Assembly: GCA_963766075.1 (NCBI GenBank)
Contig: CAVYAN010000008.1
Span: 33,953 to 97,952, forward strand
Reading direction: 5' to 3'
Length of the DNA stretch: 64,000 nucleotides
Source: an uncultured cyanobacterium
Lineage (GTDB): Bacteria > Cyanobacteriota > Cyanobacteriia > Leptolyngbyales > Leptolyngbyaceae
The first letter of the stretch is position 1, and each line of letters begins with the position of its first letter. Positions 13,098-33,979 of this stretch are shown here, in pieces. Below the pieces are notes generated by a model. The model had not been told where the DNA came from, searched no databases, and saw nothing but the letters and a program-made list of their open reading frames with translations. The position numbers were made by a program, and so were the translations under genes.

Positions 13098-13825
13098 ATT
13101 CTTGGCTCATATTTTTCAAAAAAAAACATTCCCCTGCTGCATGAGGATTTCGATTTCCTTACAAATGACGACGATTTAGAGAAGCTTATCTATTTATTGT
13201 CAGAGTTTGGGAAGTATGCTCGATATCACAATCTCGACGTAGTTACTTCAGCAGCAAAACCTAGCATTAATGTTAAACAATTGTGGGAGGAATATGAGAG
13301 TAACCTTATTACCTCAAACCCTGAAATTTTAGAGAAATTGGGAAACTTGGAAGCCACAGAAGAAGTGATAAGTTATACAAAACGACAAATTCTGATTAAA
13401 CTAGAAAAGTTCACTCGGGCTATTTGTCGACAATTCACAATTGGTCAACCAGGGAAAAAAGCCTTGCAATATTCCCCCACTTTATACAAATTTATACTTC
13501 TTAAAGATGAAGACTTAGGTAACCAGAATTATCGGTTAGAAACAACTAGATATCAAAAAAGAACAGAAGGTTCATCAGCGAACACTAGTTAACGAGCTTC
13601 AGCGAACATATAATCCTCGTTATCGTTATGCAATTGTTAGAAAAGAGAATTTTGATGGAGACTGGCCCTTCTACCATGATGAGGTAACTATCGAGTGTCG
13701 TGAAAGATATTGGTGTGTGGTGACTATTGAGAATAAGGATTATGCCTTAAATGGATCTGCCGCAGGACGATATAAACTTGAAAGTGCACATGATGCTGGT
13801 ATGGCAATTTTAGGAAAGTCTTGTG
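13098..13825 (+). pseudogene. AT-rich gene remnant truncated at both ends by IS and frameshifted near 13560; N-part HEPN-like, C-part YebY/DUF2511-like (tentative)
   Basis: LSEFGKYARYHNLD; alternate frame WPFYHDEVTIECRE...YALNGSA. Confidence 0.5.
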
Positions 13826-15044
13826 GGGAGCATCTCACCTTTGCAATGAGCATAAATGCTTAGTGATAATTTCATCGAAATACGACAAAATTGAGTCACT
13901 GATTTGAGGCTTTGCCGCCATGACGCCTGAAGAATTACAAAAAATAGAATACCATGCCAACCAAATTGCCCAAATTCTCTATTCTGATACGGATCCGAAA
14001 GTGATTCAGACCTTGGGGGATATTGAAACTACCGTTCGTCAGCAAATCCTGCAGCATGTCAGCCCTCCTATCGGTGTTTTTTTGTCAAAAATGCCACCGA
14101 AATCGAAACGGGAAGAAAGCGAAACATCAAAACAACAATCGGGAATCTTGAAATCACGGAACGTCAAGCCCAACACCTCAATGTAAAACCCTATACTCAA
14201 ATCAGTGAGCACTTAGAAAACTGCTGTCTACTCGTGAGTGCAAATAGCTCTTATGCACGTTCACAAGAAGATTTAGCAATTCTAATGGGAATAGATATTT
14301 CTCATAGTACTCATCATAGATTAGTGAATCGTCAGGAATTTAAGGGAATCATTTCTGAAACCACTATTGAATCAATGAGTTTAGATGGCGGAAAAGCTAG
14401 AATCCGCACCCCCAAGGGTGAAGTGTCTATTTACAAAGATTACAAAGCCGTGGTTTTAGAAGGTCAAGGGATCGGGGGATATTTCCAAAAAAATGAGGCG
14501 TTGATTGATTGGGTCAATAGCCAACCCTTAGCCACCACGGTTTCCTGTTTAGGCGATGGGCATGATGGGATTTGGAATGTATTTCGTGCGGTGGCGGTTC
14601 CAGAACAGCGGCGTGAAATTCTGGATTGGTACCATTTGGTCGAGAATTTGCACAAAGTGGGTGGCTCGAACAATCGCTTAAATCAGGTGGAAGCCTTGTT
14701 ATGGACTGGCAAAGTCGAGGCGGCGATGGCGCTGTTCTCCGATTGCACTCTTGATACCGTGCCCAATTTCATCACCTATCTGACCAAGCATCGGCATCGG
14801 ATTCCGAATTATGACTATTTACAGTCAGAAGGATTCACCATTGGCTCGGGTGGCGTGGAATCTGGAATTAAACAAATTAGTCGCCGGGTGAAAATTTCAG
14901 GAGCACAATGGGAGGCGAAGAATGTCGATCAAGTCGTAAAACATCGGTGTGCCTACCTAAATGGTCAATTTTCAACGCATTTTCAGCTTTCCAGGGCGAT
15001 ATGATCACAAGTATTTCTACTCATCGCAAAGGTGAGATGCTCCC
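13826..15044 (+). mobile_element. ISKra4-family IS (ISMich2-like), copy 1, 1219 bp, two ORFs joined by a frameshift
   Basis: TIR GGGAGCATCTCACCTTTGC; ORFs 13920-14186 and 14234-15004; LDGG, GDG, DWYH, IGSGGVES; T7 slip site. Confidence 0.95.
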
Positions 15045-15253
15045 TACAGAAATGCCTATTTCGCCAAGATTGTCTGCACAAGTCAGTGCAAATAAGAGAG
15101 CTTATAAAATTCTCTTATTTGTGCTTTATTAGCGTTCCACATCCCCTTTTCGTCGGCTTGCTTGGTGTTTTTTTAGTACGGCAGCTGAGCCGTGCCCAAG
15201 AGTGAGCGGCAAATTTCAGTTTGTAACCCTCAAACCTCGCAAAGAGTCCTAAC

Positions 15254-15499
15254 ATGATGGAGTTATATCAAGAAGTCGCATTACCTTGCGACTTACCAGA
15301 GTGTGGACTGAGAGCTGGAGATGTCGCAATATTGGTTGATTTTGTTCCCTATCCGAGCGATGGCGAAGGGGGCTGTGTGCTGGAAGTCTTTAATGCGATC
15401 GGTGAATCTTTTGAAGTGATTGCTGTCCCAATCTCTGTAGTAGAAGTTCTGCGCCCGGATGAAATTTTAACAGTCCGCCCCCTAGCAAAAGCGAGTTAA
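15254..15499 (+). CDS. DUF4926-family protein, preceded by a short 3' remnant (GKFQFVTLKPRKES*) of a partner gene
   Basis: ELYQEVAL..DLPE.GL.AGDV..LVD...LEVFNAIGE pattern. Confidence 0.75.
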   Translation: MMELYQEVALPCDLPECGLRAGDVAILVDFVPYPSDGEGGCVLEVFNAIGESFEVIAVPISVVEVLRPDEILTVRPLAKAS

Positions 15500-15525
15500 T
15501 GTTCAAAAGTATAATAGCTGTGGTG

Positions 15526-15612
15526 GTCTAACAAATCGTTGCAACGGCGGAATTAAGGATGGTTGGTAGAGATGCCAAAACTTATCGCCGCTGCTGAACT
15601 CAATCGTTATGC
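15526..15612 (+). other. Integron attC-like site 1 (87 bp)
   Basis: R'' GTCTAAC-aaatc-GTTGCAAC-GGCGG ... CCGCT-GCTGAAC-tcaatc-R' GTTATGC imperfect palindrome. Confidence 0.85.
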
Positions 15613-15680
15613 CGCTCAGTTTACCGTTGAGGCAATAAAATGCAAGCTGTCTCTTTAAGCAAATCTTCAATATCTATTGG

Positions 15681-16295
15681 TCACCTTTTCACTAAATAAG
15701 ATGACAGCATAGCCATAATTTCTTGTTCAAGTTCTCCATTGTTCAACAGTTCCGGACGATCAAGCATCGCCCCATGACTGAGCGCTTTAATCGTCCGCCC
15801 AACTATGAAAACAGTTAAATCTAGATTTTTAGGTTGAAGTTGATTGCATCGATGCGCCATAAACGATCGCAGCATTTTTTCCATCCTTTCATCATCTAGC
15901 TGTCGCATCTCCTCACTGCGGGGAATCTGTTCATGTAGAACGCGATGGAGCTTAGGATTCACGGCATGAGCCGCCAACGCCGCTTTGACAATCTGCTGAA
16001 GCACATCAATGATAGAGCTATCTTCTAGCCCTGCTAAATGCTGCTGAGCTATCTGCGCCATTTCATTGGCATAATGTTCCGTCAAAGCAAAAATCAGAGA
16101 TTCCTTATTCGGAAAATATTGATACAGTGAGCCGATACTTACGCCTGCCAGTTCGGCTACTCGATTTGTGGTGAGATGGTCGTATCCTTTTTCGGTCAAA
16201 ATGTGAGTCGTTGCCGTGAGAATGGCTTCAACGGTCGCTTGAGAACGTTCCTGTTTTGGTAGTTTACGCGGTGTGGCTGGGGGCTTATGTGGCAT
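15681..16295 (-). CDS. TetR/AcrR-family regulator
   Basis: PRKLPKQERSQATVEAIL, VAELAGVSIGSLYQYFPNKESL. Confidence 0.95.
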   Translation of the reverse strand: MPHKPPATPRKLPKQERSQATVEAILTATTHILTEKGYDHLTTNRVAELAGVSIGSLYQYFPNKESLIFALTEHYANEMAQIAQQHLAGLEDSSIIDVLQQIVKAALAAHAVNPKLHRVLHEQIPRSEEMRQLDDERMEKMLRSFMAHRCNQLQPKNLDLTVFIVGRTIKALSHGAMLDRPELLNNGELEQEIMAMLSSYLVKR

Positions 16296-16414
16296 GAGTA
16301 AGTATCAAAAAAATGCGAGTTGTCAGGCGATCGCGATCGCTCGTAAAGTATGAGTAATCATTCACATTATACGCAGTGAGTCTCACCGCTTGCAGCGCCA
16401 CAGGAGTACTATTC

Positions 16415-17689
16415 ATGCGTATTGCGATTATTGCGCTGGGATCTCGCGGCGATGTTCAACCCTATATTGCTTTAGGCAAGGGCTTGAAAACAGCGGGGCA
16501 TTACGTCCGATTGATAAGCCATGAAAACTTTGAACAACTGGTTAGTTCTCATGACCTAGAATTCTGGTCAGCTAAGGGTGACGTGCAAGAAATCATGGAA
16601 AGTCCAGAAATGCGCGATCTATTGGAAAAAGGGAATTTTCTTGCTATTACAGCGTATACGGCAAAAGCATCCAAACAAGCGGCGATTGACTGGGCGCACG
16701 ATGGGTTAGCCGCTTGTCAGGGCATGGAATTGCTGCTTGCAGGCGTGGGTGGGCTGTTTCTAGGTCTTGCCCTTGCCGAAAAATTAAAGCTGCCCTTGCT
16801 TCAGGCATATGTCTTTCCCTTTACGCCAACATCAGTTTTTCCCGCTCCCCTTTTCCCTCAGTTTGTATCCAAACTCGGCGGATATGTGAATCGGTTGTCT
16901 CATCATTTATTCCGACAGATCATGTGGCAGGGGTCTCGCACGGGCGATGGGATAGCACGACAGCAAGTTCTGGGCTTGCCCGCCGCCCCATTTTGGGGAC
17001 TCTACAATTCACCCCCGCTCCAGCGCTATTCAATTCTCTATGGTTTCAGTCCGTCCATAATCCCTAAACCATCAGATTGGCGTAATACCCATGTCACTGG
17101 CTATTGGTTCTTGGATGAGGCACCTAATTGGACTCCACCAGCAGCCTTGGTGGAGTTTCTGCAAAGTGGCTCGCCGCCTGTGTATGTTGGGTTTGGAAGT
17201 ATGAGGAGTCAAAATCCAGAAGAAACGGCAGATCTAGTCTTAAAAGCGATCTCTCTCACGGGGCAACGCGCCATATTGCAATCGGGTTGGGGTGGTCTGA
17301 ATAAGAACCATTTACCAGATACAGTTTTTATGGTGGATTCAATCTCCCATTCATGGCTCTTCCCACGTGTCGCGGCTGTCGTCCATCATGGTGGTGCTGG
17401 GACAACAGCCGCTGGACTCAGAGCGGGAGTTCCGACCATCGTAATTCCGTTCTTTGGCGATCAGCCCTTTTGGGGACAGCGCGTTGCAGAATTAGGGGTT
17501 GGACCAAAACTGATTCCTCGCAAAAAACTAACGGCTGAAAGACTTGCAGAAGCGATTCACATCGCGATGACCAATCGATCGATGCGTCAGTGTGCAGCCA
17601 AGCTAGGGGCGAAAATTCGAGCCGAAGATGGTATTGCCAGTGCGGTTGCCATCGTAAAGGAAATCGAAAAGCGTGGGGTTAACTACTGA
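16415..17689 (+). CDS. GT1-family glycosyltransferase (sterol/secondary-metabolite glucosyltransferase-like)
   Basis: GSRGDVQPYIALG, HHGGAGTT, PFFGDQPFWG; RBS CAGGAG upstream of ATG 16415. Confidence 0.92.
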   Translation: MRIAIIALGSRGDVQPYIALGKGLKTAGHYVRLISHENFEQLVSSHDLEFWSAKGDVQEIMESPEMRDLLEKGNFLAITAYTAKASKQAAIDWAHDGLAACQGMELLLAGVGGLFLGLALAEKLKLPLLQAYVFPFTPTSVFPAPLFPQFVSKLGGYVNRLSHHLFRQIMWQGSRTGDGIARQQVLGLPAAPFWGLYNSPPLQRYSILYGFSPSIIPKPSDWRNTHVTGYWFLDEAPNWTPPAALVEFLQSGSPPVYVGFGSMRSQNPEETADLVLKAISLTGQRAILQSGWGGLNKNHLPDTVFMVDSISHSWLFPRVAAVVHHGGAGTTAAGLRAGVPTIVIPFFGDQPFWGQRVAELGVGPKLIPRKKLTAERLAEAIHIAMTNRSMRQCAAKLGAKIRAEDGIASAVAIVKEIEKRGVNY

Positions 17690-17723
17690 CAATTTGGATT
17701 CTGTTATTAATCCCAAAATAACT

Positions 17724-18278
17724 ATGTCATTAGAAATCATTCTCATTGGTCCCATCGGTGCTGGCAAATCTAGTGTCGCTGAGCTTTTAAGCAGTCGGCT
17801 GAGTCTTCCACAACAATCAATGGATGAACGACGCTGGGACTACTACAAGGAAATTGGATATGACGAAGATCTGGCAAAGCACAAAAGAGAAACCAAAGGA
17901 TTCCGGGAAGTTTATCAATATTGGAAGCCTTTTGAAGCATATGCTGTGGAAAGACTGCTATCGGAGCATCACAATTGTGTCATTGATTTTGGTGCGAGTC
18001 ACTCTGTTTATGAAGATGTTGCTTTATTTCAGAGGGTTGAGTCAGTGTTAGCCCCATATCCCAATATTGTTCTTCTACTTCCATCTCCTGATTTAGATGA
18101 GTCGATACGGATACTGAATGAGCGGAATGATTATATATCCGATAGCAGTTCCAATATCAATGAATATTTTGTCAGGCATCCTTCAAATCATAAGCTTGCA
18201 AAATTTACGACTTACACGAAGGCAAAGGCAATAGAAGAAACTTGCAATGAAATTTTGAGTCTGACAGGCACGGCGTAA
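17724..18278 (+). CDS. Shikimate-kinase-like P-loop kinase
   Basis: IILIGPIGAGKSS Walker A, VIDFGASH; stop TAA lies inside the attC R'' box. Confidence 0.8.
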   Translation: MSLEIILIGPIGAGKSSVAELLSSRLSLPQQSMDERRWDYYKEIGYDEDLAKHKRETKGFREVYQYWKPFEAYAVERLLSEHHNCVIDFGASHSVYEDVALFQRVESVLAPYPNIVLLLPSPDLDESIRILNERNDYISDSSSNINEYFVRHPSNHKLAKFTTYTKAKAIEETCNEILSLTGTA

Positions 18279-18361
18279 CAACGCCCATGCACACCGACCG
18301 CCGAGAGTCGATTGGTTATGATGTAAAGGTTACTAGCGGCGGGTAATGGGCAACGTTATGC
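18273..18361 (+). other. Integron attC-like site 2 (89 bp)
   Basis: GCGTAAC-aacgcccATGCACaccgaccgccg ... cggcgggtaATGGGCaac-GTTATGC. Confidence 0.85.
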
Positions 18362-18408
18362 TGTCGGCATTGTATGCTTTTCTGTAATTCTAAGGCGCTA
18401 GATCATCC

Positions 18409-19599
18409 TTGCTAAAAGTAATCATCATTGGGGGTGGAATTGGGGGATTGACCCTGGCGCGTGCCTGTTTAGATGTAGGCATTGCGGTCGAGCTCTATGA
18501 AAAGCGCCCGCTGAATGCAATGCTGTCAGGACCGGGTGGCATTTTCATTCAGCGAAACGCCCTGCGGGTCTATAAGCTCCTGTGGGGAGGAAAAATATAC
18601 GATCGCCTCTCCCAGCAAGGCGGAACCATTCTGAAAGGCGGCTTCTTCAGTAAAAGCGGCGAACCGCTCTACATCAATTCCCCGCAATTTGTTCAAGAAG
18701 ATAACCTGGGGATTTGTTTACTGCGAGCAGAGTTGCAGCAAATTCTCTACACAGCGCTGCCAGAAGGTACGGTCCGCCCTGGATATGCCTTCGAGGGCTT
18801 TGAAGAGCAGGGAGACAGTCTACGCGTTGTCTTTCGGGACGGCAGCAGCACAGAAGGAGACATCCTTGTTGGTGCCGATGGGCTGTATTCTACCGTGCGG
18901 GCTCGTCTGAGTGGCAAAGACCGATTGGAGCCTCCCATCTATAGCGGCACGTGCTGTTGGCGAGGCTATTTTGATGGGACTGGGTTACCCCTAGATGACC
19001 AATACAGTTGGGCAGAATTTTGGGGGCAGGGCGATCGCTTTGGTTATTTTGATGTCGGCTCCGGGCGCTGCTCCTTTTATGCCTTTGCCAACGTGGCTGC
19101 GGGGGGAAACGATGACAGTGCGGGCGGGGCGTTAAATGCGTTGAAATCTCGGTTTTCTGGCTATGCCAGTCCAGTGCCCGCCATTCTCGAAGTGCTGGCT
19201 GACCAGCCGATCTACCGAGATGACATCTATGATCGCATCCCCCTGGGACGGGAATGGGGCCATGGACGGGTCACACTCATTGGCGATGCCGCACATCCGG
19301 TGCAACCCAGCATTGGTCAGGGGGGATGCATGGCGATTGAAGACGCTTTTGAAGTGGCGAAGCGGCTGTCTACGCAGGGACAGGAAGATGCCGTTCCAGT
19401 GTTGTTGCGCCAGTTTGAAGCGAGCCGCAGCGATCGCATCGCCCGTGTGTTCACCACTGCCCGCCAGGTCGGTCAGTTAGGGCAGGCGGAGGGCGCGATC
19501 GCCTGTTTTCTCCGCAACTGGATCTATAAACTTACCCCCACCCGACTGGCTGATCAACAGTTCAAATGGCTATTTGATTACGTTCCACGCTGGGATTAG
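18409..19599 (+). CDS. FAD-dependent monooxygenase (zeaxanthin epoxidase/salicylate hydroxylase-like)
   Basis: GGGIGG, LVGADG, LIGDAAHPVQPSIGQGGCMAIED. Confidence 0.9.
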   Translation: MLKVIIIGGGIGGLTLARACLDVGIAVELYEKRPLNAMLSGPGGIFIQRNALRVYKLLWGGKIYDRLSQQGGTILKGGFFSKSGEPLYINSPQFVQEDNLGICLLRAELQQILYTALPEGTVRPGYAFEGFEEQGDSLRVVFRDGSSTEGDILVGADGLYSTVRARLSGKDRLEPPIYSGTCCWRGYFDGTGLPLDDQYSWAEFWGQGDRFGYFDVGSGRCSFYAFANVAAGGNDDSAGGALNALKSRFSGYASPVPAILEVLADQPIYRDDIYDRIPLGREWGHGRVTLIGDAAHPVQPSIGQGGCMAIEDAFEVAKRLSTQGQEDAVPVLLRQFEASRSDRIARVFTTARQVGQLGQAEGAIACFLRNWIYKLTPTRLADQQFKWLFDYVPRWD

Positions 19600-19689
19600 G
19601 TGAGCACTGGGATGCAGTGAGCTAGGCTACCGACCAGATAGCGCGGGTATAGAGCGGGTCGGCTAGTCCGCAAGATGGCTGGCCACCGT

Positions 19690-21243
19690 TTACCAATCGT
19701 CGTCGTCATCGATTTCGGTCGTCGGTGGGCTGGGATGGCTGGCGGGTGGTATTGGACTCCACAGGGGCGATCGCTCCGCGGCCCGTGGCAATGCGTTGGG
19801 CGGTACGCCATAGGGCGGCGGCACCAATTCCAACTGCGGGGCTGCCTTTTTCGCAGACTTTTTCGTTGCTTGATAGGGCTGATTATGCCGTCGCCGGGAA
19901 ACGTTTTCTTCGCTCGTATCTTCAGCGATCACTTCGTAGAGCATGGCCAACTTATCGGGATCGTTTCCGCGCCGCAGCACGCGCCCCAAACGCTGAATAT
20001 GTTCGCGGGTGGATCCCGTGCCCGAAAGCACGATCGCCACCTTGGCATCGGGGACATCCACGCCTTCATTCAGCACCCGCGAAGCCACCAAAGCGCGGTA
20101 CTGCCCCTGCTTAAACTGGGTAAGAATGTCATGGCGTTCCTTGACGGCGGTTTGGTGGGTGATGGCGGGAATCAGGAGTTCCTGGGAAATGCGATAGACC
20201 GTGGCATTGTCATCGGTGAAGATCAGGGTGCGATCGGGGTGGTGCTTGGCCAGGAGGTCAGCCAACACCCGCAATTTGCCAGCGGTGCCAAAGGCAATGG
20301 CCCGAGCTTCTCGATGGGCCAGCATGGCACGGCGTCCGGCTTTGGATTGGGCGCTGGCTTGGACAAAGCGCTGCCAGCCCTGCACCGATCCCAGAAAGAT
20401 CTTGGCGCTCTGGAGAAATTCATTGCGCTGGGCGATCAGCTGATCGTAGCGATCGCGCTCCTGGGGCGACAGCCGCACCTTAATTTGCACCGCCTCATGG
20501 TTGGCCAAGGCACCGCCCGCTAGATCCTCGGCCCGCTTGCGATAGACCTCCGGGCCGATCAGCGTGGCCAGATCGGCGTGCTTGCCGTCGGTGCGTTCGG
20601 GGGTGGCGGTGAGGCCTAGGCGATAGGGCGCGATCGCATACTCCGCAATCACCCGATTAAAGTCACTGGGCAAATGATGGCACTCGTCAAACACCAGGAG
20701 GGCGTACTGATTGCCCAGGGTTTCGGCATGGATGGCGGCACTGTCGTAGGTGGCTACCAAAATAGCGGTGCGATCGCGGGAACCGCCCCCCAACAGGCCA
20801 ATCTCCGCATCGGGAAACGCCGCCACTAAATGGGCATACCACTGGTGCATCAAATCCAGGGTGGGCACCATGATCAGGGTGCTGTGCTGGGTGGCTTGCA
20901 TAGCCAGTTGAGCCAGATAGGTTTTGCCCGCAGCGGTCGGCAAAATCACGACGCCGCGTTGCTGAGACTGTTTCCAGGCATCCAGGGCCTCCTGCTGGTG
21001 GGGATAGGGCACCATTTCCACACTGGGCACCAGGGCCACTTCTCGAAAGGCTTTGGCTTTATCGGTGATTTCGGTGCTCGATTCGCGACAGGAGCGCAGG
21101 ACTTCAAGGTAGCGCAGGGCGGGAATGCGGAAGCGTTCGACTCGATCATCCCAGGCGGCGTAGTCCATCCAGGCTTTGCCTCGGGGCGGTGGATGCAGAA
21201 TCAAGGTGCCGCGATCGTAGGTCAACGTGGGAGTGCGAGCCAT
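19690..21243 (-). CDS. DEAD/DEAH-box SF2 helicase (XPB/Rad25-like)
   Basis: LPTAAGKT, FDECHH, LGLTATPER, QRLGRVLR. Confidence 0.92.
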   Translation of the reverse strand: MARTPTLTYDRGTLILHPPPRGKAWMDYAAWDDRVERFRIPALRYLEVLRSCRESSTEITDKAKAFREVALVPSVEMVPYPHQQEALDAWKQSQQRGVVILPTAAGKTYLAQLAMQATQHSTLIMVPTLDLMHQWYAHLVAAFPDAEIGLLGGGSRDRTAILVATYDSAAIHAETLGNQYALLVFDECHHLPSDFNRVIAEYAIAPYRLGLTATPERTDGKHADLATLIGPEVYRKRAEDLAGGALANHEAVQIKVRLSPQERDRYDQLIAQRNEFLQSAKIFLGSVQGWQRFVQASAQSKAGRRAMLAHREARAIAFGTAGKLRVLADLLAKHHPDRTLIFTDDNATVYRISQELLIPAITHQTAVKERHDILTQFKQGQYRALVASRVLNEGVDVPDAKVAIVLSGTGSTREHIQRLGRVLRRGNDPDKLAMLYEVIAEDTSEENVSRRRHNQPYQATKKSAKKAAPQLELVPPPYGVPPNALPRAAERSPLWSPIPPASHPSPPTTEIDDDDDW

Positions 21244-21523
21244 TACCCTGGTCCGGTAGGTCAATCTGTTTCCGAGTATGCCGTACTTTGTCGGCGATTT
21301 CGTTGCTATTTCTGTGCAACTTGGACGAGGAAAGAATGGGGACGGGTATGTTAAGGTATATAAATAATTATCTTTATGAAATCTATTCGGGTTTTGCCTA
21401 GAGGTTCTCGGCTTTTTTGCTCCGCCTGCTTTTGCGCCCTGCTCCGTTCACTCAACGTTGTCCTTAAATACGCCTTTAATCGCTGGTTTTGTCTGACCTG
21501 TACCCTAGAGTGATCCCGTTAGC

Positions 21524-22306
21524 ATGGTTTCCCCGATTGCCGAAGGCAGCTCCCTGTCCTCCTTCCCGGAGGCTTTTCCCTCTGAACTTTTCGTCCTCCG
21601 CCAACGTACCCAGTGGTTGGGTTTAGCGATCGCACTGCTGATTCTCACGGTCTGGTTAGCCAGCACTGTGGTGCTGTTACGGTGCAATATTTCCCAGTGG
21701 CACCCGTTGGGACGATATCTCGCGACGGCATGGCAAACATTTTTGTACACGGGCCTGTTTATTACGGCCCATGATGCGATTCATGGGGTGGTAGTGCCGC
21801 AGCATGCGCGGATTAATCGGGTGATTGGGGCGATCGCCCTGTTCGCCTATGCCATGTTTCCCTATGCCCAAATTGCCCAGCGGCACTGGCTGCACCACCA
21901 GCACCCCGCGAGTTCACGGGATCCGGATTTTCACAATGGCACCCATCGGCACTGGCTGTTGTGGTACCTGTACTTTATGTTCCGTTACTGGAGTTGGCTG
22001 CGGTTTATTGCCTTAGCGACGACCTATAACCTGATGTTTCGCTTGCTCCAGATTCCGGAAGCCAATTTGGTGGCCTTTTGGGTGCTGCCGCCGTTACTCA
22101 GCTCGTTGCAGTTGTTTTATTTCGGTACCTATTTGCCCCACCGCCAACCCGTGGGGGGCTATACCCATCCGTCGCGGGCGGAAACGATTCGGCGCTCTTG
22201 GTTCTGGTCGTTTGTGACCTGTTATCACTTTGGTTATCACCGCGAACACCATGACTATCCCTTGGTGCCCTGGTGGTTGTTGCCGACGGTGGGGCGCTTG
22301 GGCTGA
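21524..22306 (+). CDS. crtW: Beta-carotene ketolase
   Basis: QTFLYTGLFITAHDAIHG, HWLHH, QLFYFGTYLPHR, CYHFGYHREHH. Confidence 0.9.
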   Translation: MVSPIAEGSSLSSFPEAFPSELFVLRQRTQWLGLAIALLILTVWLASTVVLLRCNISQWHPLGRYLATAWQTFLYTGLFITAHDAIHGVVVPQHARINRVIGAIALFAYAMFPYAQIAQRHWLHHQHPASSRDPDFHNGTHRHWLLWYLYFMFRYWSWLRFIALATTYNLMFRLLQIPEANLVAFWVLPPLLSSLQLFYFGTYLPHRQPVGGYTHPSRAETIRRSWFWSFVTCYHFGYHREHHDYPLVPWWLLPTVGRLG

Positions 22307-22348
22307 ATCGTTCCACTACAATCTAAGGAACTCCTTGGCTGATTTGGA

Positions 22349-22894
22349 ATGAATGCTGATTGCGATCGCCTGACTCGTTGGTCTGCTGCGCTCTGTGCCT
22401 TGGCGACTTTCCCGACCCTGTGGATCTTTGGTCTGATTGTGGCGCTGTTTGGGGTGACGATTTTTCAATCTATGGATTTTAACGAATTCTATGGATTGAC
22501 GGGGGTGACGCTGAATATTGGTGGGGCCTGGGTGATCATGGTGGCTTTAGCCGGAATCAATTACTGGATCGGCATGTGGCTGGCGCATCAGTATTGGCGG
22601 GCGGTGCGACGGCAGCACCCTTTGGTGCAGTGGTATGCGGATGCTGCCCAGAAATTTCAGCGGAGTCTGTGGCGGTATACGCTGATTTCGATGCTGTTGT
22701 GGACGCTGCTGCTGATGACGATGTGCGGAATTGGTCCGACCCAGATTGATGAGGTCTATGGGGTGGCGATCGCAGCGTTTCTTTGGCTAGCGGCGCTCGG
22801 CGTTTTCAATGGGGTGGTTACGGTGTTTGCGGCGGTGCGGGCGCTGAGGGGACAGGTTTATCACTATCCTGGGGCGACGGCGGTTTTGCAGTGA
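22349..22894 (+). CDS. Hypothetical membrane protein (DUF4870-like C-terminus)
   Basis: About four TM segments; ends AVRALRGQVYHYP. Confidence 0.6.
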   Translation: MNADCDRLTRWSAALCALATFPTLWIFGLIVALFGVTIFQSMDFNEFYGLTGVTLNIGGAWVIMVALAGINYWIGMWLAHQYWRAVRRQHPLVQWYADAAQKFQRSLWRYTLISMLLWTLLLMTMCGIGPTQIDEVYGVAIAAFLWLAALGVFNGVVTVFAAVRALRGQVYHYPGATAVLQ

Positions 22895-23063
22895 GAGGAT
22901 GTTTTAAAAGTCCTGCTGTTGGTAGCAAAAGTCTGGATCCCCCTAAATCCCCCTTAAAAAGGGGGACTTTCAATCCGGTTCCCCCTTTTTTAAGGGGGGC
23001 TAGGGGGGATCTCCGGGATCGTTGAGTGCCTAACATCACATTTGAAACCTTTAAAACGTCCCC
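22895..23063. mobile_element. 169-bp MITE carrying a GC/A-tract palindrome
   Basis: TIR GAGGATGTTTTAAAAG / CCTTTAAAACGTCCCC; 3-bp TSD TGA; palindromic core about 22936-23011. Confidence 0.75.
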
Positions 23064-25027: not shown

Positions 25028-25281
25028 GGTGAACCAGGAGAGAGACTGCTTCCATCATAGGAAATTTCGGTTGCGTACCATTCTAATCAGCGCGATTATG
25101 CCGATAACGGACTGATCTCGTCGTTCCGCAACGGCCAGTCTCAGGGTATCTGTATCTAAGCTCTCTGGTTCGAGTGGCGGACCATAACGGGTAATCAAGC
25201 TTTTCCAGTAATGACCTGCATTGAGATCCATGGGTGAACTCCTAAAGCAGTGAGTCAGTGGGAATGAGAAAACAGAATTCT

Positions 25282-26850
25282 TTACCAGTTACCACCAGCA
25301 CCACCGCCATCGCTACCGCCACCGCCAAAGTCAGAACTGCTGCTGCTCGACGTATCAGGATAGTAATTGGGTTCGTAGGTGCTGCTGGATGAGGAACTTG
25401 CATCAGAGGAAGTGCGCGATCGCCCACTTGTTTCAGAACCAGAAGATGGCGATGGACGATAAATCCGGGCGATTTGCAGATGAGTACTTTCCCGATTGAT
25501 GGCCGCATTACAGGTTGGGCAGTGCCAGCCACAAATTTTGACATCCTTAGCGGCTGGAGAGGTTCGTTGTTTCGATGTGAGCAGGGGTTCTAGCTGTTCG
25601 GGCTGTAAAAGGTTGAGAGCGGTGCGGTGGCGATCGCAACAAAACGCTTGATGTTGTATACGGTAGCGTAAACTATCCCGTTCAAACGCTTGCAACAGCT
25701 TCCCGCTGAGCAAAATGCTGCATCCTGCCGTCAGCCCAGCCGCCTGTATTGGCCGCTGAATCCACCCCCCAAAGTCTCGGAGCGGAAACCAACCCAGGCT
25801 ACTAGCAAACCCCACTAGGACAAACAGTAACACCACCGAGGCGAGGAAGGATGACACCACGTCTCCCCAGTCAGGCTGAATCACCTCCTGCAGCACAGGC
25901 AGGAAACGTCGCTTATTGATCAGCCAATCCATGATGAACTTCAAGAGACCGCCAAAAATCAGCAAGGCGGCTAGGATCGGAATCAGCAAGCTGAGCCCAA
26001 AAATTTGGCCCCCCCAGTAGCGGGTGGCGGTTAAGATCATAAAGGTGAGGCTATAGAGAATAACGGCGATCGTAATTAGAGTTGGTGCCAAAAATAGCCC
26101 CGTAAATTTACGCTCTGGATGCTCACCCACCCAGGTTTGAACATCTTCTTGACGAAGAACATCCCGTCGCGTTTGCTGTTCTCCCATCTGAAGTGGTGTA
26201 AGTTGGCGCGATCGCCAGGTCAAAAGCCCACATATTCCCAGCAAGCCCACAATTCCTCCGCCCAGCAATTCCCAAATTACCGGGGGGATGACAAACTGCC
26301 GGAGGCGATCGGCATTGTTCCGAATTTCGTCTGCGAGTTGCTGGGTTACCTGGATAATTCCACCTGCATAGTCCTCCTGGCGAAAACGGGGGACTATCAC
26401 CGTTTCAATCAGCGTGGCAACTTGGGCATCTGGCAGAATGTTGGCGGTTCCTCGTCCGGTTTCAATTTCAACTCGGCGATCGTCGCGGGAGACCAGGATC
26501 AGCAGTCCATTGTCTTGAGTGGCTTTGCCAATGCCCCAGGTATTAAATAGTTCTGTGGCAAAGGCTTTGGGCGAAGCTGCTGGATCGGTCGTTGGCACTG
26601 TGACGACAGTTAACTCAGCTTGCGTATCGGCTTCCAGATCGGTCGCAATTTGATTAATCTGGACTTCAGCCTCAGGTGAGAGCAATGCTGCCATGTCAGT
26701 CACCCAGCCTCCTGAGGTCTGACGGGGGTTGGGAACGTCTTGAACAGTAATTGCCGTAGCAATGGGAGCCCAACTGAACCACAGCAATATCATTAAGCAG
26801 ATGCCTATAACCAAACGAACAGATGGTTTGAATAGACCTGGTAACTGCAT
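25282..26850 (-). CDS. TPM-domain membrane protein with Ser/Gly-rich tail
   Basis: FATELFNTWGIG..DNGLLILVS.DDRRVEIETG; tail SDFGGGGSDGGGAGGNW. Confidence 0.9.
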   Translation of the reverse strand: MQLPGLFKPSVRLVIGICLMILLWFSWAPIATAITVQDVPNPRQTSGGWVTDMAALLSPEAEVQINQIATDLEADTQAELTVVTVPTTDPAASPKAFATELFNTWGIGKATQDNGLLILVSRDDRRVEIETGRGTANILPDAQVATLIETVIVPRFRQEDYAGGIIQVTQQLADEIRNNADRLRQFVIPPVIWELLGGGIVGLLGICGLLTWRSRQLTPLQMGEQQTRRDVLRQEDVQTWVGEHPERKFTGLFLAPTLITIAVILYSLTFMILTATRYWGGQIFGLSLLIPILAALLIFGGLLKFIMDWLINKRRFLPVLQEVIQPDWGDVVSSFLASVVLLFVLVGFASSLGWFPLRDFGGWIQRPIQAAGLTAGCSILLSGKLLQAFERDSLRYRIQHQAFCCDRHRTALNLLQPEQLEPLLTSKQRTSPAAKDVKICGWHCPTCNAAINRESTHLQIARIYRPSPSSGSETSGRSRTSSDASSSSSSTYEPNYYPDTSSSSSSDFGGGGSDGGGAGGNW

Positions 26851-27106
26851 GGGGAAGTATAAAAATGAATATGGTGATTGGCTATGCTCGTAGTCTAACC
26901 TCTCTGACATACGTCACTGGCATTTGTCTCACTGGCATTGGTCTCAAGAAAGCGTCACTTGAGGCAGCAATCATTCTTGTAAAGTAATTCAGCACTCCCA
27001 TCAGGGCTGATATGGTAAATCTCCAGACAAAACTCACCTATACTCAGAGGTAGGAATGAGACACGGTTCTCCTGTCTGCCCTGCTCGCTGGTTTTGAGTA
27101 GCACAC

Positions 27107-28424
27107 CTGGTTGACTGACAAAAGTCTGCAAGTCAATTCCTGATTACCTTAAACTCGAGTCGTTCCAAACGCTGTTCCCGTTGCCATCGCGAGGCAAAAG
27201 CCGGGTCCGGATCCTGGTCAGACTGGAGCGCGACCTGCGTAAATACCTTCCACCCGCGCACCGTGACACCCTTCATCCAATTCCAACCGATTTTGAGATA
27301 GCTACTGCCGCGCTGCCAATGGGGATCCACCTGTCGGCGCAACCCTGCCGCCACGACCGCCGTCCCTTGCAGCGTCAGAAACAACGTCGCCACCGCCACC
27401 ACAAAACACAACCGCGACAAGGCGATGGCATCGCGCAGCATCGAGCGCTCCAATTCAAAGCCATTCGATTTGTCGTCCAAAAAGTTTTCCTCGATATCAA
27501 ACCGTTTGCCATATTCGGCAAAGGTTTGCAGTGTCGTCGGTTCGCTGCTGAGAATGAACCAATTTTCAGGGGTGCCTGCGACTTTCGCCAAGGCCAAATG
27601 GACATCGCTGAGGGTCTTGGTTGTGTAGATGCGCACTTGCTGAAACAGCCGTGCTTCCCCAGCACTGAGATGATAGTCCTTGATTTGTCGCCAGCCCAGA
27701 CCCGCTTGCCAAAACCAGAAATTTCCCTTCACCCGAATCCGATAGTGCCAGCCCAACTCCTGACGCACGTAGCGCATCAAATCCACATCCACAAAGCCCC
27801 GGTCGGCGAGCAATACCACTTTGACGCCCACAGGGAGTACCCCTGCCACCCGCTTGAGCATGTCACGATAGACTGCCAGTTTGACACTACAACTCTTGTG
27901 CCGAATCACCCGCCAGCCTACCGGCACCGCCCGTCCCCGGTAAACCACCGACACCCGAATGAGGCAGAACACATCCCACAGACTGCTGGTATCGAGGCTG
28001 AGGTACAGGCATGCCTCTTGCCAATCGCTCAATGCCGCTCGAATCAAGGGACCATACAACCGTGCCACGTTCAGCCGACTGTTGTGCAGCCATCGTCCGA
28101 ACCGGCGCTGGGTGCTTTGGGCATACTGCGCTTTCGTCTCCACACGACTAATCCAATGGGTCACATTCACCCGGCCTTCTTCCAAAAGACCAATCAGCAT
28201 CCACACCAAGACCGCGATGTGGCGCACATCCTGCCAGGTGGATTGACTCACAAACTCCCACAATGGATGATAAAGGCGAGAGGCGTAGACGATTTTCATA
28301 ATGGTCAATCTGATGTTTTTTGAACTAACAACAGATTAACGCCTCTTTCCTTGGTCTTCACACCTCAACACCCCTCTAGGCAAGATTTCCAGTCCTATTC
28401 CAAAAAGTTTTGTCAGTCAACCAG
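27107..28424 (-). mobile_element. IS4-family element; transposase 27133-28308
   Basis: TIR CTGGTTGACTGACAAAA; LSLDTS, LADRGF, YGKRFDIEENFLDDK (YREK-like). Confidence 0.9.
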
Positions 28425-28640
28425 GTAGTTCACACAGTCTCTCAATCCTTCCAACCACATGAATGGGGGTTGGTCATCAATCAGTATTCTTCCAGCAACC
28501 ACCAATCCAGAAAGTGGCTTGATCCCGCCTCCCACATCATCGACATAGGCAAAGAGAGGTTCTGGCTCTAGGAAAGCTGATAAATCAATCTTGAAGCCGA
28601 CTCCCCCAGAGATGCTGACAACTTGGACTGGGTTGTCCAT
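28425..28640 (-). pseudogene. Small cassette-like ORF truncated by IS4
   Basis: ATG 34 bp downstream of attC3 R'; frame runs into the IS4 TIR. Confidence 0.5.
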
Positions 28641-28673
28641 TTCACATCACCTTCGCTTATTTAGCTCTTTACT

Positions 28674-28757
28674 GTCCAACAACCCCAATCACCCACCGCA
28701 GATGAACTTGAACTCCAATCGACAACCTCTCGGCGGTCGGTGTGCATTGAGATTGTT
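28674..28757 (-). other. Integron attC-like site 3; R'' cut by ISKra4 immediately before AAC
   Basis: Minus strand AACAATCTCAATGCACACCGACCGCCG ... GCGGTGGGTGATTGGGGTT-GTTGGAC; shares ATGCACACCGACCGCCGAGAG with attC2. Confidence 0.8.
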
Positions 28758-29976
28758 GGGAGCATCTCACCTTTGCGATGAGTAGAAATACTTGTGATCA
28801 TATCGCCCTGGAAAGCTGAAAATGCGTTGAAAATTGACCATTTAGGTAGGCACACCGATGTTTTACGACTTGATCGACATTCTTCGCCTCCCATTGTGCT
28901 CCTGAAATTTTCACCCGGCGACTAATTTGTTTAATTCCAGATTCCACGCCACCCGAGCCAATGGTGAATCCTTCTGACTGTAAATAGTCATAATTCGGAA
29001 TCCGATGCCGATGCTTGGTCAGATAGGTGATGAAATTGGGCACGGTATCAAGAGTGCAATCGGAGAACAGCGCCATCGCCGCCTCGACTTTGCCAGTCCA
29101 TAACAAGGCTTCCACCTGATTTAAGCGATTGTTCGAGCCACCCACTTTGTGCAAATTCTCGACCAAATGGTACCAATCCAGAATTTCACGCCGCTGTTCT
29201 GGAACCGCCACCGCACGAAATACATTCCAAATCCCATCATGCCCATCGCCTAAACAGGAAACCGTGGTGGCTAAGGGTTGGCTATTGACCCAATCAATCA
29301 ACGCCTCATTTTTTTGGAAATATCCCCCAATCCCTTGACCTTCTAAAACCACGGCTTTGTAATCTTTGTAAATAGACACTTCACCCTTGGGGGTGCGGAT
29401 TCTAGCTTTTCCGCCATCTAAACTCATTGATTCAATAGTGGTTTCAGAAATGATTCCCTTAAATTCCTGACGATGCACTAATCTATGATGAGTACTATGA
29501 GAAATATCTATTCCCATTAGAATTGCTAAATCTTCTTGTGAACGTGCATAAGAGCTATTTGCACTCACGAGTAGACAGCAGTTTTCTAAGTGCTCACTGA
29601 TTTGAGTATAGGGTTTTACATTGAGGTGTTGGGCTTGACGTTCCGTGATTTCAAGATTCCCGATTGTTGTTTTGATGTTTCGCTTTCTTCCCGTTTCGAT
29701 TTCGGTGGCATTTTTGACAAAAAAACACCGATAGGAGGGCTGACATGCTGCAGGATTTGCTGACGAACGGTAGTTTCAATATCCCCCAAGGTCTGAATCA
29801 CTTTCGGATCCGTATCAGAATAGAGAATTTGGGCAATTTGGTTGGCATGGTATTCTATTTTTTGTAATTCTTCAGGCGTCATGGCGGCAAAGCCTCAAAT
29901 CAGTGACTCAATTTTGTCGTATTTCGATGAAATTATCACTAAGCATTTATGCTCATTGCAAAGGTGAGATGCTCCC
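28758..29976 (-). mobile_element. ISKra4-family IS copy 2 (1219 bp)
   Basis: Near-identical to copy 1, opposite strand. Confidence 0.95.
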
Positions 29977-30740
29977 TTTCTGTATCCTATTCTTGCCATT
30001 TCCAGGGCTTCTTCATAAGTCCACTGAGGCATGGGATCAAGGTCGGCAATATTCTGGAATGCTTTCAGGATGGACGAGTCACCCGTCAAGTCAGCCACAA
30101 CCTGAGCGATCGCCTTACAGCATCGGTTAGGAGAAATAACAACCTGCTTTTCACTGAAGCGAACGACGACCCACCCTTTGCGCAGGAAGAAATTATTGCG
30201 GCGATTATCTGCACCGAGGAAATGAATAGGTTTCCCAGAACTATAGATATAAGGCTCGTCAATTTCAATGTTGATGTGTAACCCAGTTGCCTGGTCAATG
30301 TAGCTGACGTCAGGATAGTAGAAACGCTCAGTCCCGAACGCTAACGTCAATTCTGTATAGACTTTGCCTGGGAAATAGCCGTTGAGCTTCATCTTTAAGA
30401 ATTCCTCTGAAGCGCCGGCTTGAGATTTACCCTTGCCATCATAAGTGCTGGTTTGCCGCAGAACTTTCAGGCATGAAGCCTGACGAAATTCAGCAACTTT
30501 TTCTGGGGTATGACATTCTGCTTTCAACCGCTCCCATTTCGGTTGATCAGCCTGTGCGGACATCCCGATACTGCCGTTTCTGTTCTGAAGCCTTTTCATA
30601 CTGCTGCTGCTCTTGGGCAAATCGGGATGTGTCTTGTTCATGCGCCCTACAGCGTTCAGGGAATGAACGAATCTGACTGACGATTTCCCAAGCGATCGCC
30701 CCAGGAATGGCAAGAACCGCCCAACTTATTACCCCGCTTA

Positions 30741-31769
30741 TAGCGGCTATCAGTCCAGCGAGGTACACTAAGAGCAAGGAAATCTACCCATAACTTGTCG
30801 CGATGAAAGCCTATTCTCTTGATTTACGCCAGAAAATCGTGGATGCCTACGCAACCGGTGATATTTCACAGCGAAAGCTCGCTAAGAACTTTGGTGTCGC
30901 CTTAAGCTTTGTCCAAACTCTCCTGAAACGTCAGCGTGAATTAGGCACTATTGCTCCCAAAGTGCGGACTGAGCAGACACCCACAAAACTCAATGATGAA
31001 CAACTGGAAATCCTGAGGCAACTGGTTGAAGCTCAGCCCGATGCAACTTTAGCCGAACTACGGGATCATCTTTATGAGAAAACCTCGATCTTCCTTGGTG
31101 TTGCCACGGTGGATCGGATGGTCCGTCTGAAGCTCAATCTCCGCTTCAAAAAAAAGTCTCTATCCCACAAAGAAAGGGACTGACCCCGTCCAACTCGCCC
31201 GCTTTGAGTACTGGCATCTGTTGCGCGGTATCCCTGCCGAGAATCTGATTTTTTTGGATGAATCGGGAGTTAATCTATCCTTGATTCGTAAATGTGCACG
31301 GGCATTACCTGGAAAACGTGCCTATGGTGAAAAGCCGAATCGTAAAGGGAAAAATGTCTCTGTGATTGGGGCGATTAGCTTAAAGGGATTGCTAGCCCAG
31401 TGGAGTGCCTTGGGCTCGATCAATACCTTGACCTTTGATGCCTTCATTGCCCAAAAGTTAGTGCCACAACTGTGGCCAGGGGCCGTGGTGATCATGGATA
31501 ATTGCTCAATTCATAAAAGTGCCGAACTCGAAGCCTTGATCGCTGCCGCAGGGGCACATCTGATTTATCTACCTCCCTACTCCCCCGATTTCTCACCCAT
31601 TGAAAACTTTTGGTCTAAGATTAAAAGCATCCTCCGTCGCATCGGTGCCAGAACTTATCCTGATTTACTTAAAGCATTAGAGGAGGCTTTTGCAGAAGTG
31701 ACGATTGAGAATTTATTGGGTTGGTTTACTCACTGCTGCTACTGTACCTCAGAAGCCCAATAACCGCTA
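30741..31769 (+). mobile_element. IS630-family element with frameshifted transposase (30803-31183, 31221-31763)
   Basis: TA-flanked ends TAGCGG...CCGCTA; MKAYSLDLRQKIV, FLDESG, MDN, LPPYSPDFSPIE; A-run slip site near 31148. Confidence 0.93.
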
Positions 31770-31797
31770 TACCAAGCAAAACAAGGCTACCCTGAGG

Positions 31798-33374
31798 GTA
31801 ACTACTCAGCGTTAAAATATTCAGCTAATTTTCAGATTGTATAGATTCTTTGTCTATATTGAGTTTCAAAGTTAATTGCCGCTGCGAGGTTTGCCTCTTG
31901 TGCTCCGCTCCCCGTTTGTCCATGAGTGCTGAAGAAATATACGCAGTGTATGCGCAGGGTGCCGAGGCTACGACGGTGCTGGTGCAAGCCCTAGTCGAGC
32001 GGATCAATCGCGTAGAAGAGCGTCTAGAAACGTTAGAGAATCAAAAGAGCAAAAATAGCCGCAATAGCAGTAAACCGCCATCCGGGGATGGGTTTGGGAA
32101 ACGCACGGAGAGCTTACGGCAGCGGAGTGAGCGGTCATCCGGTGGGCAACGGTCGCATCCGGGGAGCACGCTGTCATGGCGAGAGGATGTGAGCGAAGTG
32201 GTGGAGCATCGGGTGCATCAGTGCCATGGCTGTGGAGAGAGCTTGAGTCACGCGCCGATAATGGGAAGCGTGGTGCATCAAGTGCATGACCTCCCGGAGA
32301 TCCAACTGGAGGTGACGGAGCACCGGTCGGAAGTGAAAAGTTGTCCGGGGTGCGGTCTAGAAAATCAGGCGGCTTTTCCGGTGGAAGCGAGCCATCGGGT
32401 GCAGTATGGCTCGCGGTTGAAAGGCTGGATGGTGTATCTGATGGAGGCGCAAGTGGTTCCCGCCGCTCGGACCTGTGAAATGCTGAGCGAAATGGTCGGC
32501 GTCGAGCTTTCGGAAGGCACCTTGTTCAATACACGGGCGCAGTGTTTTGACGCATTAGCCCCGGTAGAAACTGCAATTGAGACCCAACTACAAACGTCCA
32601 CCCTGGCTCATTTTGATGAAACGGGATTGCGGGTGAATGGCAAATTGTGGTGGTTACATGTGGTCTGCACCCGTGCCTTAACCTATTACTCGGTGCAACT
32701 CAAGCGGGGACAAGTGGCCATGGAGGCGATGAACATTTTGCCGAACTTTACGGGCAAAGCAGTTCATGACGGGTGGAAAAGCTATCAAGTCTATGACCAG
32801 TGTGAACACTGCTTGTGCAATGCCCATCATCTGCGGGAATTGAAATTCATCTGGGAGCGCCACTACCAACTCTGGGCCTACTCGATGAGTCTATTCCTGA
32901 GCAGCGCCAAAGCCATCGTCGATCATGCCCGAGCCTCTGGGCTCTCGGCCCTTGACCCGGTGCAACTCCAACCGTTGGCAGCGCGCTATCAAACCATCCT
33001 GGACCAAGGCTTTGCCGCCAATCCAACAACGCCGGATTCAGAACCGGGTACCCCAAAGAAACGGGGTAGACCCAAACAGTCGGTGGCCAAGAATCTGCTC
33101 GACCGACTCAAAACCCAACACAGGTCAGTTTTGGGCTTTGTCTATGACTTTGAGGTGCCCTTTGATAACAATCAAGCGGAGCGCGATATTCGCATGATGA
33201 AGTTGAAGCAGAAAATCTCGGGTTCGTTTCGCTCTCAGGCTGGGGCTCAGATGTTCTGTCGCATTCGCGGTTATCTCTCTACTCTCAGGAAACAAGGCAT
33301 TGATGTGTTGGATGCCTTGACGAGTCTTTTTATGGGCGATCTTATCGTCCCCGACTTCTCCGCTGAGTAGTTAC
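31798..33374 (+). mobile_element. IS66-family element, single-ORF type; diverged from the copy at 11110
   Basis: TIR GTAACTACTCAG; perfect 8-bp TSD CCCTGAGG (31790-31797, 33375-33382); HFDETG, DNNQAERDIR. Confidence 0.95.
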
Positions 33375-33726
33375 CCCTGAGGATTATTACTCCCACAGCA
33401 TCCCATTCGACTCGTCGAGGGGGTTTACTAACGGGTGTAGGCGGTTTAGGTTCTAGGGGGGGCTGAGATTTGGTTAACTCAGGCAAGGGAGGGAATTGAG
33501 TCTGGATGCGGGCGATCTCAGGTGGGAATAGAATAATCGGGAAAGTGCTCATAGGTTGCCGCACCTTAAAAAATTTTTGGTTAGAGCAAATGGACAATCA
33601 GTAGAAGCGATCGTTCATTTGCTCTAGTACGGTTAGAGTTCCCAGAGTGCTTCTAGTTACTGCAATACTGCGAAGGGAAAGGGCGATCTCCATCCCCCCG
33701 TAGCTCAACATCCTCAACGTCAACCG

Positions 33727-33852
33727 GCGATTCGTAAATTAGGATTGTCGGTGCTGGCCAGCGATCGCATTCTCAAAGTCGCGCGCACCATTGCCGACTT
33801 GGCGGACGATGCGGATTTGCAAACCCAGCATGTGGCGGAAGCCATTCAATAT
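33727..33852 (+). pseudogene. comM: ComM/YifB Mg-chelatase-like ATPase C-terminal fragment
   Basis: [26 protein letters not shown]...HVAEAIQY. Confidence 0.8.
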
Positions 33853-33856
33853 GCCA

Positions 33857-33979
33857 AACGGCTATGATATCCGTACCGTCCAAGGACTCCTCGGCCCCAA
33901 AGATGTCAAAAACACGATAATCCATATCCATGCGCTTAATCGGGGCGGTTTGGGGGTTCGCAGTCCCTTGGATGCCTAA
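33857..33979 (+). pseudogene. intI: Integron integrase C-terminal remnant with catalytic His and Tyr lost
   Basis: [40 protein letters not shown] versus IntI consensus [38 protein letters not shown]. Confidence 0.85.

Follow-up and report, generated by a model that had tools for sequence, protein, structure and literature searches.

The DNA examined here (the window) is a stretch of 64,000 nucleotides that forms the last 64 kb of contig C8 from an uncultured cyanobacterium of the Leptolyngbyaceae. The assembly of this genome, labeled G000, is 5.05 Mb long, consists of 126 contigs, and is 85% complete; contigs are numbered with C and loci with L. Between positions 13098 and 34775, the window contains three palindromes resembling the attC sites of integron cassettes, a set of candidate cassette genes, a broken nuclease gene, a block of housekeeping genes, several insertion sequences (IS), the 3' end of an integron integrase gene (intI), and an element that is repeated across the genome. 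Full-length IntI proteins scoring above the TIGR02249 cut-off were found in 20 of 40 relatives, so integrons are common in the host's group. The original prediction read the locus as a shattered integron that can be reassembled by undoing one inversion.

attC sites and cassette genes

Training sites for an attC model were collected by scanning 17 regions around intI genes of other genomes with a simple rule, which returned 29 sites on the strand opposite intI (the usual orientation) and none on the intI strand. Five sites were left out of the alignment: two lay inside intI and one downstream of it, one was poorly shaped, and one was a duplicate. The remaining 24, all from other genomes, were aligned as bottom strands to give covariance model R1. 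The hairpin is paired in 95.3% of cells in this set (28 to 43% in slid controls), and 13 of its 19 pairs show two-sided change. C occupies the first extrahelical position in all 24 sites, where class 1 and Vibrio attC sites have G. When R1 was applied to the intI loci of the 17 relatives, 78 of 79 matches lay in the usual orientation (training sites included).

In the window, R1 recovered all three palindromes on the strands that had been predicted: attC1 (15526-15612, plus strand) at 50.2 bits, attC2 (18273-18361, plus strand) at 71.1 bits, and attC3 (28674-28757, minus strand) at 62.8 bits over 28674-28761, with rough E values of 4e-10, 3e-15, and 3e-13, respectively. It also found a fourth site, at the contig end (63890-63974, cassette strand minus; 45.3 bits), which the original prediction had overlooked. 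Below these four, the reverse strand of attC3 scored 16.2 bits and the background reached at most 9.9 bits. The alignment of attC2 to the model has no nonstandard pairs, and both unpaired bases are present in attC2 and attC3; attC1 aligns with three nonstandard pairs and a gap at the second extrahelical position. R'' and R' boxes were expected at each site and are present at attC1 and attC2, whereas the R'' box of attC3 retains only its AAC, the outer four bases having been replaced by an IS end that offers near-equivalents. The model alignments show bottom-strand hairpins with extrahelical bases; folding energies of the bottom strands (z = -1.14, -1.13, and -1.83 for attC1, attC2, and attC3) are not significant and are weak evidence. 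With their R''/R' boxes, L boxes, covariance matches of 50 to 71 bits, and hairpins of this form, the three palindromes are attC sites.

The rule-based scan was kept only for collecting training sites; used as a detector in the window, it picked up attC1 along with a false site at 47539-47656 but neither attC2 nor attC3. Rfam at gathering scores found nothing in the window. The fourth attC lies upstream of an open reading frame (ORF) at 63274-63855, which is weakly SMI1/KNR4-like (E 0.0045), and of an IS630 element.

The genes around attC1 and attC2 point to a row of cassettes. The last codons of a DUF6883 gene and a whole DUF4926 gene (15209-15499, plus strand; PF16277 at E 7e-5, below the cut-off) precede attC1. 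This pair is 86% identical to a DUF6883-DUF4926-attC cassette on C2, which is nearly whole there and whose attC is 89.5% identical to attC1. The proposal that DUF4926 and attC1 form a cassette is borne out by the C2 copy, but the cassette has lost its 5' end here. The kinase-like gene (AAA_18 by Pfam; 17724-18278, plus strand) has its stop codon inside the R'' box of attC2, as had been noticed. Homologs of this gene were found in 11 of 300 genomes. The three closest ones are members of attC arrays, and in two of them (L057 and L058) the stop codon likewise lies inside R''. Between attC1 and the kinase gene lie divergent genes for a TetR regulator (15681-16295, minus strand) and a glycosyltransferase (GT; 16376-17689, plus strand), both identified by Pfam (pair region 15681-17689). 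Among 19 GT loci, a close divergent TetR gene is present in six and an upstream attC in three, with the same pair following an attC in L126 and L128. At L128 the pair makes up a separate cassette, which begins with the same seven bases as in the window and ends in a cut attC. Assignment of the kinase and TetR/GT genes to cassettes is therefore upheld by homologs beside attC in some relatives. The TetR/GT pair appears to be a cassette whose own attC has been lost, and the 2.7-kb unit from attC1 to attC2 is likely two fused cassettes, since the GT and kinase genes are never found together elsewhere.

The gene for a flavin adenine dinucleotide (FAD)-dependent monooxygenase (18409-19599, plus strand; Pfam) follows attC2. 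The one homolog found, in one of 60 genomes (76% identity), is followed after about 260 nt by an attC. The gene is probably the last cassette, as proposed, but no attC lies behind it here, and its GC content and density of highly iterated palindrome (HIP1) sites are native-like.

An inversion between two ISKra4-family copies

The region from attC1 to attC3 lies between two copies of an ISKra4-family IS in inverted orientation, copy 1 at 13826-15044 (plus strand) and copy 2 at 28758-29976 (minus strand), which differ at two of 1,219 bases. Copy 1 has two ORFs in an ISMich2-like layout. The family assignment rests on a 214-bit match to NF033572 (cut-off, 205), terminal inverted repeats, and 8-bp repeats; full copies on C31 and C29 are flanked by 8-bp direct repeats. 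In the orientation of the IS, the eight bases to the right of copy 1 equal the eight to the left of copy 2, an agreement with a chance of about 2e-5 per position. This shared target duplication falls within a gene for a DUF559/Vsr-like nuclease (29977-33552, minus strand, starting at 33552). The gene is broken into three pieces that match residues 1-48, 71-153, and 117-329 of protein P0081, and it is interrupted by an IS630 element (about 30740-31770, flanked by TA), an IS66 element with an intact 8-bp duplication (31798-33374), and ISKra4 copy 2. Its displaced 3' end lies beside copy 1 (15045-15095, plus strand), and the first 8 bases there are one copy of the duplication. The piece that ends at 29977 stops with Tyr-Arg, and the piece at 15045 starts with Tyr-Arg-Asn-Ala-Tyr; all 35 homolog tails that match the terminal motif (of 83 homologs) have Arg-x-x-Tyr at the split point. 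Because the target duplication is split and the nuclease gene resumes across it, the 13.7-kb block from 15045 to 28757 lies flipped. The inversion is thus better supported than the original prediction claimed.

At the other junction of the pair, the flank at the gene at 13098 and the flank at attC3 do not match. Recombination between two inserted copies and intramolecular, one-step transposition both fit as likely routes. ISKra4 elements make 8- to 9-bp repeats and transpose through circles, according to the accessible text of PMC3942029, and recombination and one-step replicative transposition are therefore equally likely. Six differing sites occur among the five full ISKra4 copies that the assembly spans, and these do not decide between the two. 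A third copy in the window (44299-45517) sits inside another transposase gene; its flanks form no direct repeat and suggest a further rearrangement.

When the inversion is undone and IS are removed, attC1 and attC2 come to lie on the strand opposite intI, with attC1 about 1.85 kb from the intI remnant; today only attC3 is on that strand. This much of the predicted leftward array divergent from intI is restored, but a comM fragment and the nuclease gene intervene, and no attI was found. The nuclease gene, which had been proposed as the first cassette, is not a cassette gene: a same-strand attC is present at 0 of 33 homologous loci (the 29 best genome loci and four metagenome loci), and one of the 33 has an attC, on the wrong strand. 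R1 found no attC between the end of the nuclease gene and DUF4926.

At the other end of the block, the gene at 13098-13825 (plus strand) is a remnant of a gene for about 350 amino acids. It is cut by IS at both ends, carries a frameshift near 13560, and matches residues 93-334 of P0002 (351 residues). At L050 the P0002 gene is followed 20 nt on by an attC (28 bits), which is the case at one of two cyanobacterial and none of four Flavobacteriaceae loci; the gene at 13098 is probably a cassette gene. The prediction that attC3 directly follows it did not hold up. Once the block is turned back, a 1,219-bp IS separates the two, and at least 17 codons and part of R'' are lost. Since the two flanks do not match, DNA of some length was deleted between them, which would be about 60 to 90 bases if attC3 is the gene's own site; original adjacency of the gene and attC3 is plausible. 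To the left, an IS66 element is nested in another IS (11110-13099), whose 410-bp end cuts the gene and has three more copies in the genome.

Within the flipped block, the monooxygenase gene is followed by housekeeping genes (19690-26910): an XPB-like helicase gene, crtW, a DUF4870 gene, xseB, a dihydroorotase gene, and a TPM-domain gene. With a GC content of 0.56 and 2.1 HIP1 sites per kb, this segment resembles the native flanks. An IS4-family element (27105-28424, minus strand; a single copy in the assembly) cuts a 72-codon ORF that follows attC3 (28425-28640, minus strand), and relatives of this ORF were found in 0 of 200 other genomes. Un-flipping therefore does give two converging arrays, as envisaged, but both are damaged and about 7 kb of housekeeping genes lies between them; in addition, the adjoining intI stub is one of several dead copies. 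The inversion is supported, and undoing it orients attC1 and attC2, but does not by itself reassemble one integron.

The intI remnant and the multicopy element

The 3' remnant of intI lies at 33852-33979 (plus strand), with 40 codons at 33857-33979. Its matches in NCBIfam are to integron-integrase models only (TIGR02249, E 1e-12), and IntI4 is its sole match among 177,635 PDB sequences at E<=10. It is 74 to 85% identical to the intI copies of G000, and other hits have E>2. The remnant does not include the region of the IntI-specific insertion domain. As predicted, it is nearer to IntI than to other tyrosine recombinases, and the replacement of the catalytic His and Tyr (GH to GP and IY to IH) is seen on comparison with the intact IntI of G000. 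The 40 codons are IntI-derived. G000 has one intact intI, on C41, whose product has all catalytic motifs and scores 464.6 bits (TIGR02249 cut-off, 265). Directly upstream of it (C41:96165-96215) are AGTAC-containing palindromes that we take to resemble the cyanobacterial LexA box.

Five 3' remnants of intI, including that of the window, are present in G000. Those on C17 (C17:164560-164980), C65 (C65:48800-49190), and C31 (the second copy there, C31:99450-99840) form mini-platforms, in which an attI/promoter region 84 to 88% identical to that of C41 is fused to the last intI codons by one shared internal deletion; the three start with three different first cassettes. The remnant of the window and the other C31 copy have a common breakpoint and the Tyr-to-His change, so the window remnant was probably copied when it was already inactive. 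At L073 (C31:36600-37210), an attI region of a second kind and a diverged 5' pseudogene of intI are fused to a window-type 3' remnant, followed by a GNAT cassette and an attC.

In the window, the left side of the remnant, where attI would stand, is occupied by a 3' fragment of comM (YifB Mg-chelatase-like; 33724-33852, plus strand) that is joined to the remnant. The fragment is 79% identical to the comM of G000 and looks foreign; comM was not found beside intI in the relatives' loci L009 to L049. The comM and nuclease sequences fill the space between the remnant and the first cassette. In agreement with the original prediction, no attI was identified: the attI/promoter region of G000 has no BLAST match in this contig, and three motifs from that attI region, with 3 mismatches allowed, gave no convincing match in the window. 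The missing attI may still be of a divergent type. Near 30725, 11 bases resemble the C31 attI, but they are part of the nuclease coding sequence and were dismissed as an attI candidate. At L045 (G035:C47, 8-2551), intI adjoins an XPB-like helicase gene that is 71% identical to the helicase gene next to the monooxygenase gene of the window.

The remnant is followed by 21-bp tandem repeats (34003-34212, plus strand), which also follow the intact intI, and by the multicopy element (34274-34775, plus strand). The element is about 500 bp long and has 18 copies in G000 (17 outside the window), which mark integron platforms and other accessory DNA. It contains a promoter-like sequence, predicted hairpins, two hypervariable loops, and a 74-codon ORF (74 to 105 codons across copies). 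The stems are constant, whereas the loops, of 5 to 9 bases, differ in almost every copy; one loop is bounded by HIP1 sites. The predicted fold shows four two-sided changes (3.1 in shuffled controls), which is weak covariation. The ORF has no Pfam match and, in the Atlas, matches unnamed cyanobacterial clusters at only 0.80 to 0.82; Rfam gave chance-level hits over the element. The idea that the variable loops act as guides to flanking DNA was discarded, as no matches were found within 3 kb. Repeat-plus-small-ORF elements of a similar general kind have been described in Nostoc.

The three deletion-bearing platforms share the deletion and not their first cassettes, and the element copies, which are mosaics of each other, adjoin foreign DNA of various kinds, as though the element acted as a recombination anchor or a mobile carrier of upstream DNA. 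In a doubtful reading of this pattern, the stub would belong to a family of nonautonomous mini-integrons, in which attI, a deleted intI, and the 21-bp repeats are tied to the element, spread with it, and capture cassettes through the single intact IntI in trans. If this pattern were true genome-wide, several attI platforms without an integrase, dependent on a single integrase and distributed by a repeat element, would explain dispersed cassettes in cyanobacterial chromosomes. Homologs of the element occur in 5 of 60 family genomes, and because nine loci there have no attC or intI within 1.5 kb, the tie between element and intI may be lineage-specific.

Other surroundings of the element are varied. 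On C17 (L081), the end of a reverse-transcriptase gene (C17:102500-104330) adjoins an attC upstream of an element copy, as does the end of a methylase-HNH pair on C10 (L080; C10:89400-91060). On C90 (L082; C90:37900-41800), a copy with its 21-bp repeats directly abuts a ksgA-like fragment and uvrD genes that are split; this sequence has no attC and is foreign-looking like the comM fragment.

Origin of the locus and comparison with known systems

We interpret the locus as the decayed cassette array of a cyanobacterial integron, next to a dead intI stub, with a 13.7-kb block flipped between inverted ISKra4 copies, and assign this reading a probability of about 0.68. A common origin of stub and array is favored because 8 of the 17 other element copies have an attC in the usual orientation within 7 kb upstream, compared with 1.2% of random positions, and because C2 pairs the same cassette with the element (1.3 kb upstream of a copy). 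The attC distance at other copies is 1.2 to 6.4 kb, and the reconstructed distance in the window lies inside this range; several of the attC-less copies lie close to contig ends.

In the history that we propose, an integron platform of attI, intI, 21-bp repeats, and multicopy element would have spread to several loci, mostly with intI deleted. The copy in the window would have been dead before it was copied, and its attI would have been lost. About four cassettes (DUF6883-DUF4926, TetR/GT, kinase, and monooxygenase) would have lain to the left of the platform, with two attC sites and the 5' end of the first cassette later eroded, and a separate, opposite-facing pair (the gene at 13098 and attC3) would have lain beyond the housekeeping block. 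ISKra4 would then have entered the nuclease gene and the attC3 junction, with deletion of adjacent DNA and inversion of the block. Today the locus would be an attC cluster without an integrase (CALIN), with no local capture, and IntI from C41 could excise the attC1-attC2 unit in trans. The locus likely represents the remains of one of several gene-capture platforms without an integrase that are dispersed over G000, an ordinary kind of element.

Several observations weigh against this interpretation. Stub and array are tied by nothing beyond distance and orientation, with no attI and two non-cassette sequences between them. In the present arrangement, attC3 is on the usual strand about 1.4 kb (IS-free) from the remnant, so orientation alone cannot choose between arrangements. 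The minimum-energy fold of attC1 leaves its R boxes unpaired, and attC1 folds no better than its shuffles. Few homologous loci have a same-strand attC nearby (4 of 12 for the kinase gene, 3 of 19 for the GT gene, and 1 of 6 for the gene at 13098), and elsewhere the GT and kinase genes occur together at 0 of 12 kinase and 0 of 19 GT loci. In some relatives, kinase, TetR/GT, and monooxygenase genes stand beside attC; no intI turned up within 1.5 kb of any homolog of the GT or nuclease genes. The genomes sampled included none of the same genus. Near-identical inverted repeats also allow the DNA between them to be assembled in the wrong orientation, and the un-inverted locus was not found either in four distant metagenome loci or in one read run holding 5% of the words, in which no contig joins 15045 to 29977.

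The strongest alternative, which we consider unlikely, is that the cassettes entered attG sites through IntI acting in trans and that the stub and repeat came separately, their closeness reflecting a hot spot for foreign DNA. The genome has at least 28 attC hits over 18 contigs, many of them solitary (150 of 1,261 candidates were scored), and isolated cassettes arise in this way experimentally, according to the accessible text of 10.1101/2022.09.11.507474. The lack of attI, the intervening nuclease gene and comM fragment, and the C90 element copy joined to unrelated uvrD and ksgA-like sequence without attC also fit. It is opposed by the strong tendency of element copies to have an upstream attC in the usual orientation, by the reconstructed distance, and by the C2 paralog, which has the same first cassette with the same element.

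An assembly artifact between the inverted IS copies, which are 99.8% identical, is improbable; the chromosome would then have the order that the original prediction reconstructed. The assembly is fragmented and incomplete, the split duplication would be identical under either cause, and independent reads were not found. However, the assembly includes five full IS copies with six differing sites among them, and two have correct direct repeats, which suggests that the repeats were resolved, and the mismatch at the other junction persists either way. Misassembly would leave both the observed picture and the ancestral order unchanged. A single array broken by two successive inversions, the earlier through the IS4 element or a lost IS, so that attC3 and the gene at 13098 belong to the same integron, is very improbable: attC2 and attC3 share 21 identical bases, the IS4 flanks agree at only seven of nine bases, and the monooxygenase gene has no terminal attC, but no second inverted-repeat pair or second split duplication was found, attC2-like sites on four further contigs mean that the likeness is no proof of a common array, and in one relative (L039) an attC 9 kb from intI faces the opposite way as well.

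As a decayed array, the locus resembles CALIN and IS-split chromosomal integrons. The accessible text of Cury et al. 2016 (PMC4889954) gives IS neighbors for 38% of CALIN, names inversion as a cause of splitting, and allows for service in trans. Like these, the window carries two or more attC sites with no functional integrase near them (attC1 and attC2, spaced 2.7 kb, within a span of about 4 kb), IS neighbors, and an intact intI elsewhere in the genome, on a different contig; beside the array itself stand only 40 intI codons with the catalytic His and Tyr replaced. Unlike the CALIN described there, 95% of which have no recognizable intI remnant, the window has a remnant nearby and an inversion traceable by a split duplication. 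attC3 and the site at 63890 are single attC sites far from an integrase, as in the single attC sites lacking an integrase (SALIN) and attG insertions described in the accessible text of 10.1101/2022.09.11.507474, whereas attC1 and attC2 together make up an array close to a platform derived from intI. A phylum-specific cyanobacterial attC family has already been modeled (Ghaly et al. 2021, PMC8352920, accessible text); the window sites resemble those of the relatives' complete integrons, as scored with our own model R1 rather than the published one. The inversion parallels one bounded by IS26, for which the accessible text of He et al. 2015 (PMC4471558) describes two inverted IS copies and a split 8-bp duplication. 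Both cases have an inverted IS pair, one 8-bp sequence at a flank of each copy, and a split gene, but the IS of the window belongs to the ISKra4 family. In Xanthomonas, a truncated intI among transposases and dispersed CALIN are reported in the accessible text of 10.1101/2025.06.18.660453.

The locus is a well-documented case of how a chromosomal integron is broken up by IS elements into dispersed groups of cassettes, and its inversion can be read from the sequence. This process, including the IS-split array itself, has already been described. The multicopy platform and the repeat with two hypervariable loops are the more novel side: a literature search with little subscription content found no publication on multicopy dead intI platforms in cyanobacteria or on the element.

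Three minor observations concern relatives and the remaining sequence. At L043 (G017:C1, 3153-8693) and L033 in relatives, attC sites run about 308 bases apart, which suggests tandem repeats of very short cassettes. Copies of a palindrome that resembles repetitive extragenic palindromes, rich in G and C runs and common in cyanobacteria, lie at 22930-23020 and 34890-35070 in the window. Finally, sppA (35135-36947), a Met-zincin gene (37020-39897), and the comM of G000 (C25, near 7150) are each split over two frames; these splits and the frameshifts in the nuclease gene and the gene at 13098 may be assembly indel errors.

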